Below the pieces are notes generated by a model. It searched no databases. It was not told the origin of the DNA and saw only the letters and a program-made list of their open reading frames with translations. The translations under genes were made by a program, and so were the position numbers. Source: a virus (lineage: Duplodnaviria > Heunggongvirae > Uroviricota > Caudoviricetes). Taken from it: 64,000 nt of DNA. This document shows, piece by piece, positions 7,021-27,957 of the stretch. Positions within the stretch are counted from its first letter, which is position 1, and every line of letters begins with the position of its first letter. Location: IMG/VR virus record IMGVR_UViG_3300043399_000561. One strand, 5' to 3'.

Positions 7021-7440
7021 CTATATATTTAAATGCTGTTTAGCATTTTCAACATAACTTTCAATTCTTTCTTTTCCAACATTGTTCTTAGAATGCACTA
7101 TATATCTAGGAAACTTCTTTTGATTATTTACGCAATATTCAACTAACCATTTTGCGCAATCATATCCGGTTTTTTCCGGTCCATAATCAAAGGTCTTTAT
7201 TAAATCACCGTCGTTGTATGTATAAGAATCTGCCTGGGCATTCTCCTCTAACATAACTGCATAATGAAAGTCCGCTAAATCGTGGTCAAAACACACAAAC
7301 TTCGGCAAACCAAAAAACTCAACGTGTCTGACAAAACCGTCAAAGCTACGAGCTATAAAAATAGAATCATAGCGAGGAAACTCGGCCCACGTTACTTGAT
7401 CGGGCATTCTTTCGTCATCAAGAAATAAAACGTAAGACAT
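7021..7440 (-). CDS. Hypothetical protein (139 aa; start trimmed to MSYVLF to avoid overlap with tRNA-Ser)
   Basis: ORF track frame. The upstream 30 codons of the listed ORF are the tRNA-Ser(TGA) gene read in frame. Confidence 0.45.
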   Translation of the reverse strand: MSYVLFLDDERMPDQVTWAEFPRYDSIFIARSFDGFVRHVEFFGLPKFVCFDHDLADFHYAVMLEENAQADSYTYNDGDLIKTFDYGPEKTGYDCAKWLVEYCVNNQKKFPRYIVHSKNNVGKERIESYVENAKQHLNI

Positions 7441-7456
7441 TGTTAATCCTAATAGT

Positions 7457-7544
<88 letters not shown>

Positions 7545-8506: not shown

Positions 8507-8787
8507 TGGTATGAGCGGCGGGACTCGAACCCGCACGTCCAAAGGACACAAGATTTTCTTACCACTATAGCTTTCGCTACCCATTAGTTTGTGGTCTGGA
8601 CTATCCCTTCATCATATCATGACTGACTTAGATGCCTGCCGTCTAGTCTCTACACCTTCCCTTTCGGGCTTGGCTCGGGATCAGCATTTTACAGCCTTCC
8701 CCGAATTTGACAGGTTCTACTCTAGAGATTTCCCTCTAGGCACTCAAATTAATAAGTCTCGGGCGTCTACCATTCCGCCACGCTCAC
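8507..8787 (-). tRNA. tRNA-Leu(UAA) interrupted by a ~196-nt group I intron (exons 8754-8787 and 8507-8557)
   Basis: 5' exon is a Leu-type acceptor plus D-arm (GTGAGCG TG GCGGAATGGTAGACGCC CGAGA CTT). 3' exon is AAAA TCTTG, variable hairpin, T-arm and CGCTCAT A CCA. The intron sits between U34 and A35. Its sequence carries the conserved cores of the cyanobacterial/plastid tRNA-Leu IC3 intron (TTGAGT..CTAGAGGGAAATC, CAAATTCGGGGAA, GATCCCGAGCCAAGCCCGAAAGGGAAGGTGTAGAGACTAGACGG, AGTCCAGACC, GTAGCGAAAGCT, terminal G). Confidence 0.8.
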
Positions 8788-9491: not shown

Positions 9492-9566
9492 TGGTAGCGC
9501 CGAGGAATTCTGCCATCCTGACCTTTCGGGTGTAAACCGAATGCTCTACTTCTGAGCTACGGCGCC
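9492..9566 (-). tRNA. tRNA-Val(TAC) with non-canonical T-arm
   Basis: Anticodon loop TTTACAC and good acceptor, but the T-arm is a 4-bp AGGA/TCCT stem with a 9-nt loop TGGCAGAAT. Confidence 0.6.
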
Positions 9567-9927: not shown

Positions 9928-10003
9928 TGGTGCTCTAGGAGAGAATCGAACTCCCTGTCTCCGGGTTACAAATCCGGCGCATCGCCAGCAATGCTTCTAG
10001 AGC
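9928..10003 (-). tRNA. tRNA-Thr(TGT)
   Basis: Anticodon loop TTTGTAA with an A:C at the stem closing pair; T-loop TTCGATT; CCA. Confidence 0.7.
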
Positions 10004-10538
10004 GTAATATTTTGTTTCTTTGCTTGTATATAGCAGCGTTAGAGACACCTAGCATATTTTCTAGTTCTCCGATTCTGTGCTTGTCAAGCAATGCAATCAA
10101 GTCAATACTATCCCAATCTACCTTTCGGCTGTTACGCTGGGCACAAGTATGACTGCAAAACTGTTGTGCAACAGGCTTTTGGGCATCGCAGATTGGACAA
10201 GCATCATACTCTGACACTTTCTTGAAGTCAGCAAATGCTTCATTAAAACCTTCATACGTTTCCGGAAGTTCTAAGGCTCCTGCGTGAATCTCACTGTGGC
10301 AGTTGTGACAAACCAAAATACACTTTCTAAGTTCAGTTACGACCTTAGACCATGATTTTGGATTCGCTCTAGTACCACCGAATCCAATGTCTTTTTGACT
10401 AGGATCAATATGATGAAATGCCAGCGCAGCAGTATGCTTATCATACCCACAGCATTGACATTTCCCGCCCATTGCTTCTACCATCTTATTTTTGGTATTT
10501 TCTCTCCAGCGTTTTACTTTTTCTGATCCATAGCTCAT
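9966..10538 (-). CDS. HNH homing-endonuclease-like protein with Cys-rich zinc-binding N-terminus
   Basis: CHNCHSEIH HNH core and several CxxC pairs. The last 12 codons are read from the 5' half of tRNA-Thr, and the stop codon is the TAA in its anticodon loop. Confidence 0.6.
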   Translation of the reverse strand: MSYGSEKVKRWRENTKNKMVEAMGGKCQCCGYDKHTAALAFHHIDPSQKDIGFGGTRANPKSWSKVVTELRKCILVCHNCHSEIHAGALELPETYEGFNEAFADFKKVSEYDACPICDAQKPVAQQFCSHTCAQRNSRKVDWDSIDLIALLDKHRIGELENMLGVSNAAIYKQRNKILRSRSIAGDAPDL

Positions 10539-10700: not shown

Positions 10701-10729
10701 ACTATAGCAGCCTGACAAATAAATGTCAA
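10701..10729 (-). promoter_or_regulatory. sigma70-type promoter TTGACA-N17-TATAGT upstream of tRNA-Asn
   Basis: Exact N17 spacing. Confidence 0.55.
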
Positions 10730-11292
10730 GCTGCTATTTTCAAGATCCTACTGTGCTTGGGAACACCTGAAATCAAGTAATCCATCTGATCCGCAAGAAT
10801 GTTGCGGTTCTGTAGAATCAAGCTTTCATAGTGGTTCGGCTCGTAGGGAATGTAACGCAATTCCATACCACTTTGCTTTAATGTCTTGCAACCCTTCTTT
10901 TGGTTACAGTCAAAGCAAGATGTTACGACATTAGTCCATTCGTCCAAACCGCCCAAGAACCTCGGGACAATGTGGTCACGACTCAAATCATACTTACTTG
11001 CGAAATGATTTCCACAGTAAGCACAGATATGTCTGTCACGAGCAAACAATGTAGGGTTCGTAAGAACTACTTTGTTGTGCTTTTTGAAATCGAAACCGTT
11101 ACCCCTAATAGCAATAATGCTAGGAGTTTCTAGATAGCTACGAGTACCATCGTTCTTGTAACCACCGTTGTATCTAGCAATTACATCACCTAGACTCCAA
11201 GCTACCAGATTTTTTGCGTGATACGAAATTGCTTCGTCGTGGGAGACCCACGTTCTGGGGACACCCGATATGTCTAAGGCTAGAACTGCCAT
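10726..11292 (-). CDS. HNH homing endonuclease
   Basis: DHIVPRFLGGLDEWTNVVTSCFDCNQKKG, a canonical HNH motif. Confidence 0.7.
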   Translation of the reverse strand: MAVLALDISGVPRTWVSHDEAISYHAKNLVAWSLGDVIARYNGGYKNDGTRSYLETPSIIAIRGNGFDFKKHNKVVLTNPTLFARDRHICAYCGNHFASKYDLSRDHIVPRFLGGLDEWTNVVTSCFDCNQKKGCKTLKQSGMELRYIPYEPNHYESLILQNRNILADQMDYLISGVPKHSRILKIAA

Positions 11293-12176: not shown

Positions 12177-12267
12177 TGGTACTCCTGCTCGGATTCGAAC
12201 CGAGACCGACCCCTAATCTGGGCTCCGGGATATAAATCCGGCCACTCTACCATTAAGCTACAGGAGT
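12177..12267 (-). tRNA. Unusual 91-nt type II tRNA, anticodon apparently TAT
   Basis: Perfect 7-bp acceptor, T-arm CTCGG TTCGAAT CCGAG, CCA and a long variable arm. The anticodon arm is CCGGA TTTATAT CCCGG, which is either a 4-bp stem with a 9-nt loop or a stem with an A:C closing pair. Confidence 0.5.
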
Positions 12268-12693: not shown

Positions 12694-12901
12694 AGAGAAT
12701 CTCCCTATGATATTTAGTAAATTATAGTGGGCCCGTCACCACAACATAGACGGCATTATGCGGAATTTATCAGCGCCTCCGCTTGTGGATAGCTTGCTAT
12801 CCTTTGGGTAAGTTATTGCAGATTACTTTCAGGTTAGCCTTCGCACCGTCTCCAATGTATGCCTACACGGGATTTCATCTTACTAACACCCACTATAAAC
12901 T

Positions 12902-13339: not shown

Positions 13340-13415
13340 TGGTGCCGCCTCGAGGTTTCGATCCCCGTTCTTCGGTGCTTCAAACCGACGCTATCACCAG
13401 ATCAGCTAAAGCGGC
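13340..13415 (-). tRNA. tRNA-Phe(GAA)
   Basis: Anticodon loop TTGAAGC, T-loop ATCGAAA (unusual), CCA. Confidence 0.7.
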
Positions 13416-13967
13416 ATTTAAGTCATTATATTGTTCTTTCTCTATAATGAGAATCTTCTTGTCAGGATGCTGTTCTATTACTGCATCCATCTTAGCTCTA
13501 TCATTGCCCCACCATCTGCCCTTTATCTCAACATAAAGATCAAAAGCAGGAAGATAGAAATCAGGAGTGTAGTTCTTTGTTATTCCATCTAGAACATACT
13601 TCCAAGACTTGCATCTTTCCCAAGCAATGTTATTATCGTTACAGTATAAAGCAAAAGTCCTTTCCCAGGTACCTTGCACTTTCTTACCGCTCACTTCAAA
13701 CCATTTACTCTTGCCACCTGGATTATGCTGTGACATTCGTTCGGACAATCGTTTACGAGCATCCTCGCCCATTACAGTAGGACCGTATTCAGCAATGCGA
13801 AGTTTTGTAGCTTCAGATTTAGTCCTAGTAATTAGGTCGCCGCGATTTTTGGCATTGACCAATGAGTTAAAAGCGAGTCCGTGCTTCTGTTGCAGGCCTC
13901 TAAAGCTCAACCCAGCGTCATAATCTTTCTGTATTTCAGCCCAATCGTAATGTTTCTTGTGTGGCAT
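13380..13967 (-). CDS. PD-(D/E)xK-type homing endonuclease with N-terminal HTH-like region
   Basis: DFYLPAFDLYVEIKG gives D...E-x-K. The last 11 codons (AALADLVIASV) are the 5' 33 nt of tRNA-Phe read in frame, and the TGA stop sits in its anticodon loop. Confidence 0.55.
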   Translation of the reverse strand: MPHKKHYDWAEIQKDYDAGLSFRGLQQKHGLAFNSLVNAKNRGDLITRTKSEATKLRIAEYGPTVMGEDARKRLSERMSQHNPGGKSKWFEVSGKKVQGTWERTFALYCNDNNIAWERCKSWKYVLDGITKNYTPDFYLPAFDLYVEIKGRWWGNDRAKMDAVIEQHPDKKILIIEKEQYNDLNAALADLVIASV

Positions 13968-14279: not shown

Positions 14280-14363
14280 TGGTGGGCCGGTGTGGACTTG
14301 AACCACGCCCCGAAGGATGAGTTTTACAGACTCACTGCTAAATCCAATTAGCTTTACCGTCCC
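14280..14363 (-). tRNA. tRNA-Tyr(GTA), type II, copy 2
   Basis: Anticodon loop CTGTAAA, variable arm, T-loop TTCAAGT, CCA; one A:G mismatch in the acceptor stem. Confidence 0.7.
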
Positions 14364-14370
14364 ATTAACT

Positions 14371-14555
14371 TGGTGAGGGCGACCAGATTCGAACTGGCAG
14401 AAGTCGTTACCAAAGCATTACCAGTGGCTGCCATCAGGTTCAAAGACTGCCGCGAGTCTACAAAAAATACCCCTAGGCACTTGCGAACAAACTCGGGTGT
14501 TACCCCAATCGTTCCTTACTTTAACGATGCGTATACCTATTTCCGCTACGCCCTC
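14371..14555 (-). ncRNA. 185-nt tRNA-like gene: Leu-type tRNA with ~100-nt insertion in the anticodon loop (small intron or disrupted tRNA)
   Basis: Perfect acceptor GAGGGCG/CGCCCTC with A and CCA, T-arm GCCAG TTCGAAT CTGGT, Leu-like D-arm GCGGAAATAGGTATACGC. The anticodon-stem 5' strand TCGTT pairs with AACGA about 100 nt downstream; the 3' exon loop then reads CTTTGGT, a possible TTG anticodon. Confidence 0.45.
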
Positions 14556-15192: not shown

Positions 15193-15288
15193 TGGTGGAC
15201 TGTGAAGGATTCGAACCTTCGAGTGGCCGTCGCCAATGAGTACCATACTTAATGGGAATCGAACCCAATCCTCTTCCAGGAACAGTCC
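15193..15288 (-). pseudogene. Chimeric or pseudo tRNA (96 nt): intact acceptor, T-arm and CCA, but a non-foldable core containing a second internal T-arm-like segment
   Basis: GGACTGT...ACAGTCC A CCA with T-arm GAAGG TTCGAAT CCTTC. Interior holds TGGG TTCGATT CCCA and a hairpin TGGC GACG GCCA. No D-arm or anticodon arm can be drawn. Confidence 0.4.
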
Positions 15289-16833: not shown

Positions 16834-16907
16834 TGGTGCTCCCAGGAGGTACCGCCCCTCCGGCTCATCATTACCAATGATGTGTATTGCTTTTATACTA
16901 TGGGAGC
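16834..16907 (-). tRNA. tRNA-Thr(GGT) with non-canonical T-loop
   Basis: Anticodon loop TTGGTAA; T-arm GGAGG GGCGGTA CCTCC lacks the TTC; CCA. Confidence 0.6.
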
Positions 16908-16938: not shown

Positions 16939-17535
16939 TTAATTTAAAGGAAGTCCTCTTGATGCTCTGCCATTGCCCTTATTACGACCTTTCCAAGTCG
17001 GCGTAATACTATGACAATTAGGACAAACTAATCTAAGGTTGGCGAATTCGTTATTTCCCGCGTTGCCGTCAATATGATCTAATTCCAACGACAATTTTGC
17101 GCCGCGCCATTCCGATATGCCACATTCAAAGCAGTTGCTTCCGTACTCACGAATCAACGCAGTTTTGATAGTCGTTCGTTCGGTTAGGTTTCCTTCATAT
17201 AATCGTTTTTTAGTGTCCTCTCTAGTAGGAATATGCTGGCAATCTGCACTACAATATTTTTTTACTAGGTGCTTAGAAGAGGTGTGTTTTTTTCCGCAGC
17301 CTGCACATTCCCATTCTACTTTGGTAGCTCTATTTTTATTAGAATGGGTAGCGGCGCAAGTGTGGTTACAGAATTTTTTGTGCCTATCAACATATGATAG
17401 TGTTTTGTTGCATTCCGCACAAGAACTAGGAGAACTGTCATAAAGTTCTACTCGTTGCAGTTTTTTCTTTTCTAAGGTAGCTCTGGCTTTTTTCATACCA
17501 AGCGCGCCTGCTTCTGCTTTTGTTAGTTTTCGCAT
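16939..17535 (-). CDS. HNH endonuclease with multiple CxxC zinc knuckles
   Basis: ELDHIDGNAGNNEFANLRLVCPNCHSITP. Confidence 0.65.
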   Translation of the reverse strand: MRKLTKAEAGALGMKKARATLEKKKLQRVELYDSSPSSCAECNKTLSYVDRHKKFCNHTCAATHSNKNRATKVEWECAGCGKKHTSSKHLVKKYCSADCQHIPTREDTKKRLYEGNLTERTTIKTALIREYGSNCFECGISEWRGAKLSLELDHIDGNAGNNEFANLRLVCPNCHSITPTWKGRNKGNGRASRGLPLN

Positions 17536-27882: not shown

Positions 27883-27957
27883 TGGCGCGCTCGGTGGGAT
27901 TCGAACCCACTGTCTCGGGCTTTAGAGACCCTTGCAATACCATTTAGCCTCGGGCGC
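27883..27957 (-). tRNA. Isolated atypical tRNA-like gene (8-nt anticodon loop, 1-nt variable region)
   Basis: Acceptor with one C:A mismatch, T-arm GTGGG TTCGAAT CCCAC and CCA. The only stem available for the anticodon is GTCTC/GAGAC around loop TAAAGCCC. Sits just upstream of the peroxiredoxin gene. Confidence 0.4.

Follow-up and report, generated by a model that had tools for sequence, protein, structure and literature searches.

A 185-nt gene in a phage tRNA array joins a tRNA-like body to an inserted domain that stands in the place of the anticodon arm and is conserved, in sequence and in pairing, among related viral contigs. The gene lies on the minus strand at positions 14371-14555 of the window, as we call the whole 64,000-nt stretch of viral DNA that was analysed; its sequence was re-read and verified. 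We tentatively regard it as encoding a stable, unspliced, non-decoding tRNA-like RNA, whose function we infer. It represents a new family of unusual architecture within the known broad kind of tRNA-like RNAs and is not in Rfam 15, and full-text searching of the literature found no described element of this kind.

Genomic setting and tRNA-like features

The window is part of a jumbo-phage-like genome. Its ORFs encode both subunits of ribonucleotide reductase, a nicotinamide phosphoribosyltransferase, and tail-fibre, baseplate and radical-SAM proteins. Related contigs represent genomes of 333-360 kb, about five times the length of the window, and no close relative of the window was found among GenBank phages. 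All tRNA genes of the window are encoded on the minus strand, one at 27.9 kb and the others between 3.6 and 17.8 kb, and about 39 tRNA-like genes share the strand of the 185-nt gene. The array is interspersed with HNH and endonuclease-I-type nuclease genes and also includes one ORF with a cRec domain. The gene is flanked upstream by tRNA-Ala(GGC) and downstream by a Tyr-like tRNA, each 9 nt away, and neither a promoter nor a strong terminator was found between these flanking tRNAs. In another contig with the element (L004), it is again directly followed by a Tyr-like tRNA. The position in a tRNA array, the shared strand, the 9-nt spacing on both sides and the conservation in other phages together indicate that the gene is more than a chance resemblance.

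With introns allowed, ARAGORN returned exactly 14371-14555 as a tRNA-Gln(UUG) interrupted by an insert of 107 nt between positions 31 and 32. The gene was missed by ARAGORN in its default mode and by the Rfam tRNA model (RF00005, threshold 29 bits), which gave no match on the element at E<=10 or at E<=5. Read on the minus strand from 14555 to 14371, the gene is GAGGGCG-UA-GCGGAAAUAGGUAUACGC-...-GCCAGUUCGAAUCUGGU-CGCCCUC-ACCA. Both the sequence and the ARAGORN cloverleaf contain the canonical 7-bp acceptor stem, a D arm, a T loop of the UUCGAAU type, and the discriminator followed by CCA. The transcribed molecule does not keep a 5-bp anticodon stem with a 7-nt loop (U33, R37). The original prediction, made from the sequence of the window, had described a Leu-type tRNA with about 100 extra nucleotides in its anticodon loop. 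All of the tRNA-like features that it listed are present (seven of seven Watson-Crick acceptor pairs, ACCA, the T arm and the Leu-like D arm), and its estimate of the insert length is close to the 107 nt given by ARAGORN. Its assignment of the body to the Leu type agrees with the best ordinary match of a covariance model that we built from the element (R1), which is tRNA-Leu of related phages and of T4.

Relatives, conservation and consensus fold

Besides the window, ten viral or metagenomic contigs carry the element, and four sequence variants of it can be distinguished. Relatives were identified by exact-pattern scans, in IMG/VR contigs (L001-L004) and in metagenome contigs (L006, L008, L010 and L011); the four distinct variants, the window included, make up alignment A3 and fall into two main lineages. 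Model R1 scored 229 bits on the window gene and 222-227 bits on its homologs. The distribution of the family is narrow. No further member was detected when R1 was searched against 23 related jumbo-phage loci that share the array, by more degenerate pattern scans of IMG/VR, or among the GenBank phages searched, and the element is absent from GTDB (one genome for each of 185,579 species) by pattern scans. Three candidate contigs (L040-L042) proved to be chance matches.

Pairwise identity among the variants is 87-98% for the whole element and 83-98% for its middle 129 columns. In comparisons of the same genomes, ordinary tRNAs are about 70-97% identical (mostly 75-90%) and ORFs about 67-77%, and most spacers are unalignable. 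The element ranks among the best conserved segments of the array, and the identity figures show that purifying selection acts on the insert no less strongly than on the surrounding tRNAs. Only three positions distinguish the window from its nearest variant, two of them being the two sides of a single base pair in the helix labelled H4 below.

We derived a consensus fold from the four variants with RNAalifold, in alignment columns. The parts of the element, with their window coordinates and, for the helices of the fold, the alignment columns, are:

14371..14555, minus strand: whole tRNA-like gene, 185 nt (ARAGORN in intron mode; 229 bits with model R1)
14529..14555, minus strand: 5' tRNA-like part, with acceptor GAGGGCG, U8 A9 and the Leu-type D arm GCG-GAAAUAGGUAUA-CGC (sequence reading); the acceptor stem occupies columns 1-7/177-183 (RNAalifold)
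14508..14528, minus strand: hairpin HP1, AUCGUU-AAAGUAAGG-AACGAU, 6 bp, in the place of the anticodon arm; columns 29-34/45-50 (AUCGUU/AACGAU), 100% paired in the four variants
14495..14506, minus strand: small hairpin HP2, GGG-GUAACA-CCC; columns 52-54/61-63 (RNAalifold), with G-C changed to A-U on both sides in two variants
14486..14494, minus strand: 5' strand of the long-range helix H3, GAGUUUGUU, conserved partner of the 3' strand AACGACUU; columns 64-72/150-157 for the helix (RNAalifold), supported by covariation
14429..14479, minus strand: long arm H4-H7, which includes the hairpin AGACU-CGCGGC-AGUCU; columns 79-129 (RNAalifold), supported by covariation of an H4 pair
14409..14428, minus strand: hairpin H8, GCCA-CUGGUAAUGCUU-UGGU; columns 130-149 (RNAalifold), with C-G changed to U-A on both sides
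14401..14408, minus strand: 3' strand of H3, AACGACUU, which the original prediction had taken for the 3' strand of the anticodon stem; it covaries with 14486-14494, not with TCGTT
14371..14398, minus strand: T arm GCCAG-UUCGAAU-CUGGU, acceptor CGCCCUC, discriminator A and encoded CCA (sequence reading)

The consensus fold, which also contains the D arm and the T arm, has 53 pairs, and 99.5% of the cells are paired across the four variants. Both partners are substituted in five pairs, of which H3 contributes two and HP2, H4 and H8 one each, versus zero in all six slid controls. Fifteen of the 26 variable columns fall in helices, and 14 of these 15 keep their pairing: ten make up the five compensated pairs and four pair through wobble, leaving one that breaks a pair. 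The two doubly changed pairs of H3 go from A-U to G-C and from U-A to C-G, and a further H3 pair goes from U.G to U-A; at the H4 pair, the window has C-G and the other variants have A-U. The original prediction had offered an inactivated tRNA as one explanation, which is contradicted by the strong conservation and by these compensatory changes in the insert.

Three helices (HP1, HP2 and H3) stand where a tRNA has its anticodon arm, and the centre of the fold is a tight six-helix junction with linkers of 0-2 nt. Helix H3 closes a 77-nt three-way-junction domain made of a 51-nt arm with a nearly invariant core and a hairpin with a 12-nt loop. A 33-nt stretch of the long arm (14436-14468) is invariant in the three closest variants, and alignment columns 90-121 are invariant in all four. 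At the ends of the gene, the 5' tRNA-like part (14529..14555) is invariant across the four variants except in the D loop, and the 3' part (14371..14398) is invariant in every variant. The loop of HP1 is 9 nt long (10 nt in one variant) and has no U33, and one A-U pair of its stem is changed to G.U; the variable length and the lack of U33 indicate that it is not a decoding loop. The tetranucleotide GUAA is present in four to five copies versus about 1.1-1.7 expected, a count reached by about 1% of dinucleotide shuffles and noticed post hoc. The copies are located in the loops of HP1, HP2 and H8 and at the H8/H3 junction; one variant lacks the copy in HP1, and a junction GCAA is replaced by GUAA in another lineage.

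The proposed fold is well supported, short of proven, by covariation among four sequences from two main lineages with few independent events. An alternative register, which involves H8 and the 3' strand of H3, likewise covaries and leaves room for two conformations. Folding of the insert had been proposed in the original prediction; the four-variant consensus yielded the structure described above, and folding of the single sequence was uninformative (z = -0.87).

Spliced tRNA or stable tRNA-like RNA

According to the original prediction, TCGTT (nt 29-33) can pair with AACGA (nt 148-152), which lies just before the variable region, as an anticodon stem interrupted by an intron in its loop, leaving CTTTGGT as the 3' portion of that loop. 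The letters do allow this pairing, with a variable loop of 5 nt after AACGA, but selection does not keep it. In two of the four variants AACGA is replaced by AACAG, which against the invariant TCGTT gives an uncompensated C.A mismatch and a G.U pair, and the same changes are exactly compensated inside the insert, where UUUGUU becomes ACUGUU. For these two variants ARAGORN loses the gene or calls another tRNA. In the consensus fold, the 3' splice point given by ARAGORN (G|C, 14416/14415) and the putative 7-nt anticodon loop CUUUGGU are both held within H8.

Our tentative reading of the gene as an unspliced RNA draws on the conservation and covariation described above and on the decay, in two variants, of the anticodon stem that a spliced tRNA would need. 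The reading is also supported by the putative anticodon, which is UUG in some variants versus CUA in others and does not suit a Leu-type body, and by the precedent of T4 rnaC and rnaD, stable RNAs that are encoded in a phage tRNA cluster and are not tRNAs. As the gene is located in a promoter-less stretch of closely spaced tRNAs, the RNA is probably released from a polycistronic precursor and, like its neighbours, would be cut out by RNase P and 3'-end nucleases. It would then stay 185 nt long and act as a non-decoding tRNA mimic, its intact elbow and acceptor/T minihelix making it a likely substrate for tRNA-handling proteins. Charging with leucine is conceivable given the A73 discriminator and the Leu-type D arm. 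The leucyl-tRNA synthetase of E. coli (LeuRS) reportedly uses A73 and tertiary features of the D and T loops and is said to require neither the anticodon arm nor the variable arm, so that leucylation could conceivably extend to the unspliced RNA. The inserted domain, with its invariant loops, its 33-nt near-invariant core and its four to five GUAA motifs, may serve as a platform to which a protein or an RNA of the phage or the host binds. Such an RNA could, for example, be a tRNA mimic or decoy against host tRNA-targeting defences, or a regulator of tRNA-handling enzymes.

As a special case of the unspliced reading, the RNA might act as a decoy or sponge that occupies a tRNA-targeting nuclease of the host. 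Its tRNA-shaped scaffold would then present several copies of GUAA in loops, each standing for the tRNA-Tyr anticodon together with A37. The excess of GUAA, its placement in loops and the change from GCAA to GUAA in another lineage are consistent with such a role, as is the Tyr-like tRNA directly after the gene in the window and in L004. Phage tRNA arrays are also known counter-measures against tRNA-cleaving defences (PMC7824862; PMC13096335). Nevertheless, we consider this specific role improbable, since the motif was counted post hoc and one variant has no copy in HP1; a structural role of the GNRA type explains the GUAA motifs equally well.

The opposite possibility is that the gene encodes a tRNA with a new, non-group-I small intron and that the product is a 78-nt tRNA with a Leu-type body. 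Splicing of a kind other than group I, such as by the novel mini-intron suggested by the original prediction, is plausible in itself; as an account of this gene we think it rather unlikely, though it explains several observations well. The fold of HP1, H3 and H8 would present both splice sites, and excision would be due to a small ribozyme activity or to a phage or host endonuclease together with an RNA ligase. The predicted junction in the product of about 78 nt would be ...ACGCAUCGUU|CUUUGGUAACGA... or ...CGCUUUGUU|CUUUGG..., and the anticodon would be UUG in the lineage of the window and CUA, an amber suppressor, in the other. When nt 34-140 are deleted, the resulting 78-nt molecule is called a tRNA by ARAGORN in all four variants, which would be a striking coincidence if the RNA were never spliced, and the 7-nt loop of this hypothetical product keeps C32, U33, R37 (G37) and U38 throughout. 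When the internal strand supplies the 5' half of the anticodon stem, this stem pairs perfectly in the four variants and covaries like a normal 27-43 pair. The putative boundaries obey the group I convention, the insert being preceded by U and ending in G.

Small inserts in the anticodon loops of otherwise intact tRNA genes of related jumbo phages, namely tRNA-Leu(UAA), tRNA-Thr(UGU) and tRNA-Ser(UGA), also argue that this phage group is able to splice such inserts, which counts against a permanently unspliced RNA. The tRNA-Leu(UAA) gene of the relatives is mostly intron-less; three lineages have in it a group I intron about 200 nt long, and another has an insert of only 62 nt (L026, 11085-11233). 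In contig L032 (8405-8567 and 15793-15966), positional orthologs of tRNA-Thr(UGU) and tRNA-Ser(UGA) carry homologous inserts of about 85 nt, have intact exons and still score above the Rfam tRNA threshold. This family of 85-90-nt inserts is found in three phage contigs (L032, L038 and L039) and at three loop positions, a recurrence that suggests mobility and splicing. RNA ligases and end-healing enzymes are common among the jumbo phages that have tRNA arrays (PMC7824862), and the array of the window includes the ORF with a cRec domain, both of which are compatible with splicing. The 107-nt insert could be one of several undescribed kinds of small (about 60-110 nt), non-group-I tRNA introns of jumbo phages, alongside the 62-nt tRNA-Leu(UAA) insert and the 85-90-nt family of tRNA-Thr and tRNA-Ser, an idea that we find doubtful. 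Removal would be by a tiny ribozyme or by phage RNA-repair enzymes.

Several observations are difficult to reconcile with a spliced product. A product of a single excision has the C.A mismatch and the G.U pair in the anticodon stem of two variants, and the version with a perfect stem requires that two pieces be removed, one on each side of a 6-nt micro-exon. With its A73 and the anticodon UUG, a Leu-type body would place leucine at glutamine codons, and orthologs with UUG and CUA have no coherent decoding role in a phage that already has tRNA-Gln(UUG) and a tRNA(CUA). Recoding of stop codons does not account for the CUA anticodon, as TAG, which is rare, remains in use as the stop of two of 40 ORFs. 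No ribozyme or intron family matches the element, no intron-less allele was found by a pattern scan of IMG/VR, and no ligase or splicing endonuclease was found among the scanned ORFs of the window, which covers about one fifth of a genome of roughly 330-360 kb.

The original prediction had considered the insert too small for a standard group I intron, and it is also unlike one. The Rfam group I model (RF00028) gave no match in a search of 501 nt (E<=10) or in one of 2.8 kb (E<=5); on the genuine intron at 8577-8764 the same model scores 65.7 bits. There is no U.G wobble at the putative 5' splice site, the last exon U pairing with A in HP1 in all variants. The terminal G of group I introns (omega G) is present, as the insert ends in ...GGUAAUG in the four variants under the ARAGORN parse. 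Three other contigs considered as group I cores (L005, L007 and L009) were chance matches in GC-rich coding DNA that have no Rfam match. We also weighed whether the gene could be a decayed relic, that is, a pseudogene that arose as a duplicate of the intron-bearing tRNA-Leu(UAA), whose group I intron lost P4-P6 and P8 by deletion, and that persists only because the divergence of the phages is recent. A tRNA-Leu(UAA) with a 196-nt group I intron is encoded in the same window, the 5' half of the element is most like that gene, and the element and the phage's own tRNA-Leu intron have short strings in common in the same order (AGUGCCUAG, GUAGA..CGGCAG and UGGUAA.G); one relative has just 62 nt at the intron site of its tRNA-Leu(UAA). 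We nevertheless judge a relic very improbable. Local alignments with the three group I introns of this group of phages are not significant, their scores being equalled by 17-347 of 500 shuffles, Rfam finds no group I match even at E<=10, and the element is highly conserved and carries pairwise-compensated substitutions, which drift does not yield.

No other known RNA class accounts for the insert. Comparison with intron and ribozyme models, which the original prediction had also proposed, returned no Rfam family: hammerhead, twister, pistol, HDV and other ribozymes are not detected at E<=10, and the string CUGAUGG is not a hammerhead core and is not conserved. Protein-spliced tRNA introns of archaea and eukaryotes have a bulge-helix-bulge (BHB) motif at their boundaries, usually at position 37/38. 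The BHB-like element suggested by the original prediction is not evident on inspection of the consensus fold, which has no two 3-nt bulges separated by 4 bp at the boundaries; the position of the insert is 31/32. A tmRNA was rejected because the third acceptor pair is G3-C70 and not G3.U70, ARAGORN reports no tmRNA, and the 10 bits (E=7.9) obtained with the Rfam permuted-tmRNA model are at chance level. YrlA/Y RNA and GOLLD models have no match on the element.

Comparison with known systems and significance

The closest analogues that we identified are the species 1 and species 2 RNAs of T4 (rnaC and rnaD), likewise small stable RNAs encoded in a phage tRNA cluster beside homing-endonuclease genes. 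These RNAs were discovered in the 1970s, and to our knowledge their function is still unknown. Of the two, rnaC carries a canonical T arm (CCGGG-UUCGAAU-CCCGG), its ends pair to enclose additional hairpins, and it does not serve as a decoding tRNA; the element, judged by its position and consensus fold, likewise combines a place in a tRNA cluster, a T arm and paired ends with the character of a non-decoder. The resemblance does not extend to sequence or model similarity, as R1 hits T4 tRNA-Leu (33 bits) and has no match to rnaC or rnaD at E<=10. Unlike the T4 RNAs, the element retains the D arm in full, an acceptor stem with all 7 bp intact and an encoded ACCA, and it has a three-way-junction domain closed by a long-range helix. 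It can thus be placed in a class with rnaC and rnaD by analogy only, as an analogue and not a homolog.

Among tRNAs, the element is comparable with the tRNA-Leu(UAA) of the window (8507-8787), with which it shares the Leu-type D arm (a 3-bp stem and a long loop with GG) and A73, and whose acceptor and T arms resemble its own. It differs in having neither a 7-nt anticodon loop in its conserved fold nor a long variable arm or UAA anticodon. With group I introns it shares the placement of an insert in the anticodon loop, the U before and the final G, and a 5' hairpin that pairs the exon end with a guide-like strand. However, at 107 nt the insert is about half the length of the 196-nt intron of the window, it has no P4-P6, and no P3-P7 pseudoknot was found in it. 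The tRNA-like domain of tmRNA offers another parallel, as it likewise combines an acceptor/T-arm module and CCA with a large structured domain that replaces the anticodon arm; in contrast to tmRNA, the element has a normal D arm and has neither the G3.U70 alanine identity pair nor a tag reading frame. GOLLD RNA (RF02032) is likewise a large structured RNA of phage tRNA arrays but a different molecule. Two homologous contigs encode it, about 900 nt downstream of the element; it is not found in the window.

Standard tRNA finders miss several genes of such arrays. Should splicing prove to be true, the element would exemplify a new class of tRNA introns, very small and carried by bacterial viruses, with the inserts of the relatives as variations on the same theme, and would bear on how introns originate, shrink and are removed without a group I core; its tRNA would read CAA in one lineage and the UAG stop in another. 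Phage tRNA arrays are now regarded as phage weaponry in a contest over translation and over the tRNA-cleaving defences of the host, and the odd RNAs encoded in them have been unexplained since T4 species 1 and 2. The element adds a new family, supported by covariation, in which the anticodon arm of an otherwise complete tRNA body gives way to a six-way junction and a conserved domain, and it provides a concrete molecule with which the role of tRNA mimics can be tested.

Neighbours of the 185-nt gene and other unusual tRNA-like genes

The 185-nt tRNA-like gene lies directly upstream of a second atypical gene, and two metagenome contigs that carry its homolog encode a GOLLD RNA.

Window 14285-14361, minus strand: Tyr-like class II tRNA with anticodon loop CUGUAAA
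L006 2641-3128 and L008 512-999: GOLLD RNA (RF02032, 192 bits)

An A.G mismatch interrupts the acceptor stem of the Tyr-like tRNA, whose Rfam score is just 19 bits. This tRNA and the 185-nt gene are conserved as a pair in L004 (IMG/VR) and L011 (metagenome). The GOLLD RNA is found ~900 nt downstream of the homolog of the 185-nt gene in both contigs and is absent from the window.

Further tRNA-like genes of unusual length occupy a syntenic location in the window and in related contigs.

Window 15193-15288, minus strand: 96-nt gene between tRNA-Ser(GGA) and tRNA-Pro(GGG)
L026 1101-1217, L028 374-498 and L004 ~1115-1253: three variants of a 117-125-nt family

The 96-nt gene was detected neither by ARAGORN nor by the Rfam tRNA model, and its match to the tRNA-Sec model is weak (20 bits, E ~1). 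Its 7-bp acceptor stem is perfectly paired, ACCA is present and the T arm is canonical; where the D/anticodon region would be expected there is instead a further hairpin resembling a T arm (UUGGG-UUCGAUU-CCCAU). In the 117-125-nt family the T arm is present, the D region is reduced and there is an internal domain; the L028 member shares the 12-mer GUAAGUGACUAG with the 185-nt gene.

Protein genes and other elements in and around the array

Protein-coding genes are interspersed among the tRNA genes, together with a block that is not a tRNA and several atypical tRNAs.

Window 7021-7530 (minus strand), 9966-10538, 10726-11292, 13380-13967 and 16939-17535 (minus strand): cRec-domain and nuclease ORFs
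Window ~12719-12821, minus strand: non-tRNA block of ~100 nt
Window 9495-9566, 16837-16907 and 12177-12267, minus strand: tRNAs with atypical features
Window 27883-27957, minus strand: tRNA with anticodon CUA (amber suppressor, labelled Pyl by ARAGORN), outside the main array

One ORF encodes a cRec (cyclic-phosphate-processing receiver) domain, and its start, at the listed coordinates, overlaps tRNA-Ser(UGA); four or more others encode nucleases of the HNH or endonuclease-I type. The non-tRNA block is 82-89% identical in L003, L004 and L008, forms hairpins with variable loops (GGAUAG-loop-CUAUCC and GCGGA...UCCGC) and had no match in Rfam; it is a candidate small RNA within the array. Two of the three atypical tRNAs were detected by Rfam only and have atypical T loops, and the same set includes a 91-nt tRNA-Ile(UAU) whose long extra arm is not typical of an Ile tRNA. 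TAG is rare in the window but used as a stop codon (2 of 40 ORFs).

Inserts in tRNA-Leu(UAA), tRNA-Thr(UGU) and tRNA-Ser(UGA)

Among the relatives, tRNA-Leu(UAA) either lacks an intron, has one of ~200 nt, or carries a 62-nt insert alone.

Window 8507-8787, minus strand: tRNA-Leu(UAA) with a 196-nt compact group I intron (RF00028, 65.7 bits)
L012 1524-1814 and L033 2352-2644: tRNA-Leu(UAA) with a ~200-nt intron
L026 11085-11233, equivalent to L003 452-597, and also L024, L025 and L027: tRNA-Leu(UAA) with the 62-nt insert

The intron in the window is inserted between U34 and A35, ends in G and has a U.G pair at the 5' splice site. The 62-nt insert lies between C32 and U33, is closed by a CGAGGA/UCCUCG stem and is flanked by intact exons (39 bits, Rfam tRNA). 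Its length falls far short of what a group I intron needs, and it shows no significant similarity to one.

A separate family of 85-90-nt inserts was found in anticodon loops of tRNA-Thr(UGU) and tRNA-Ser(UGA).

L032 8405-8567 and 15793-15966, L038 1242-1414 (minus strand) and L039 1 to ~135: tRNA genes with 85-90-nt inserts

These inserts, found in three different huge-phage contigs and at three different loop positions, had no family match in Rfam and obey the U/G rule at their boundaries inconsistently. The interrupted tRNA genes are otherwise intact. In their shared architecture, the 5' hairpin contains a conserved U.U, another hairpin is variable and the hairpin GAGAGCCUAAAGCUC is invariant. 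The family is a candidate for a new class of tRNA intron, one that is small and possibly mobile.
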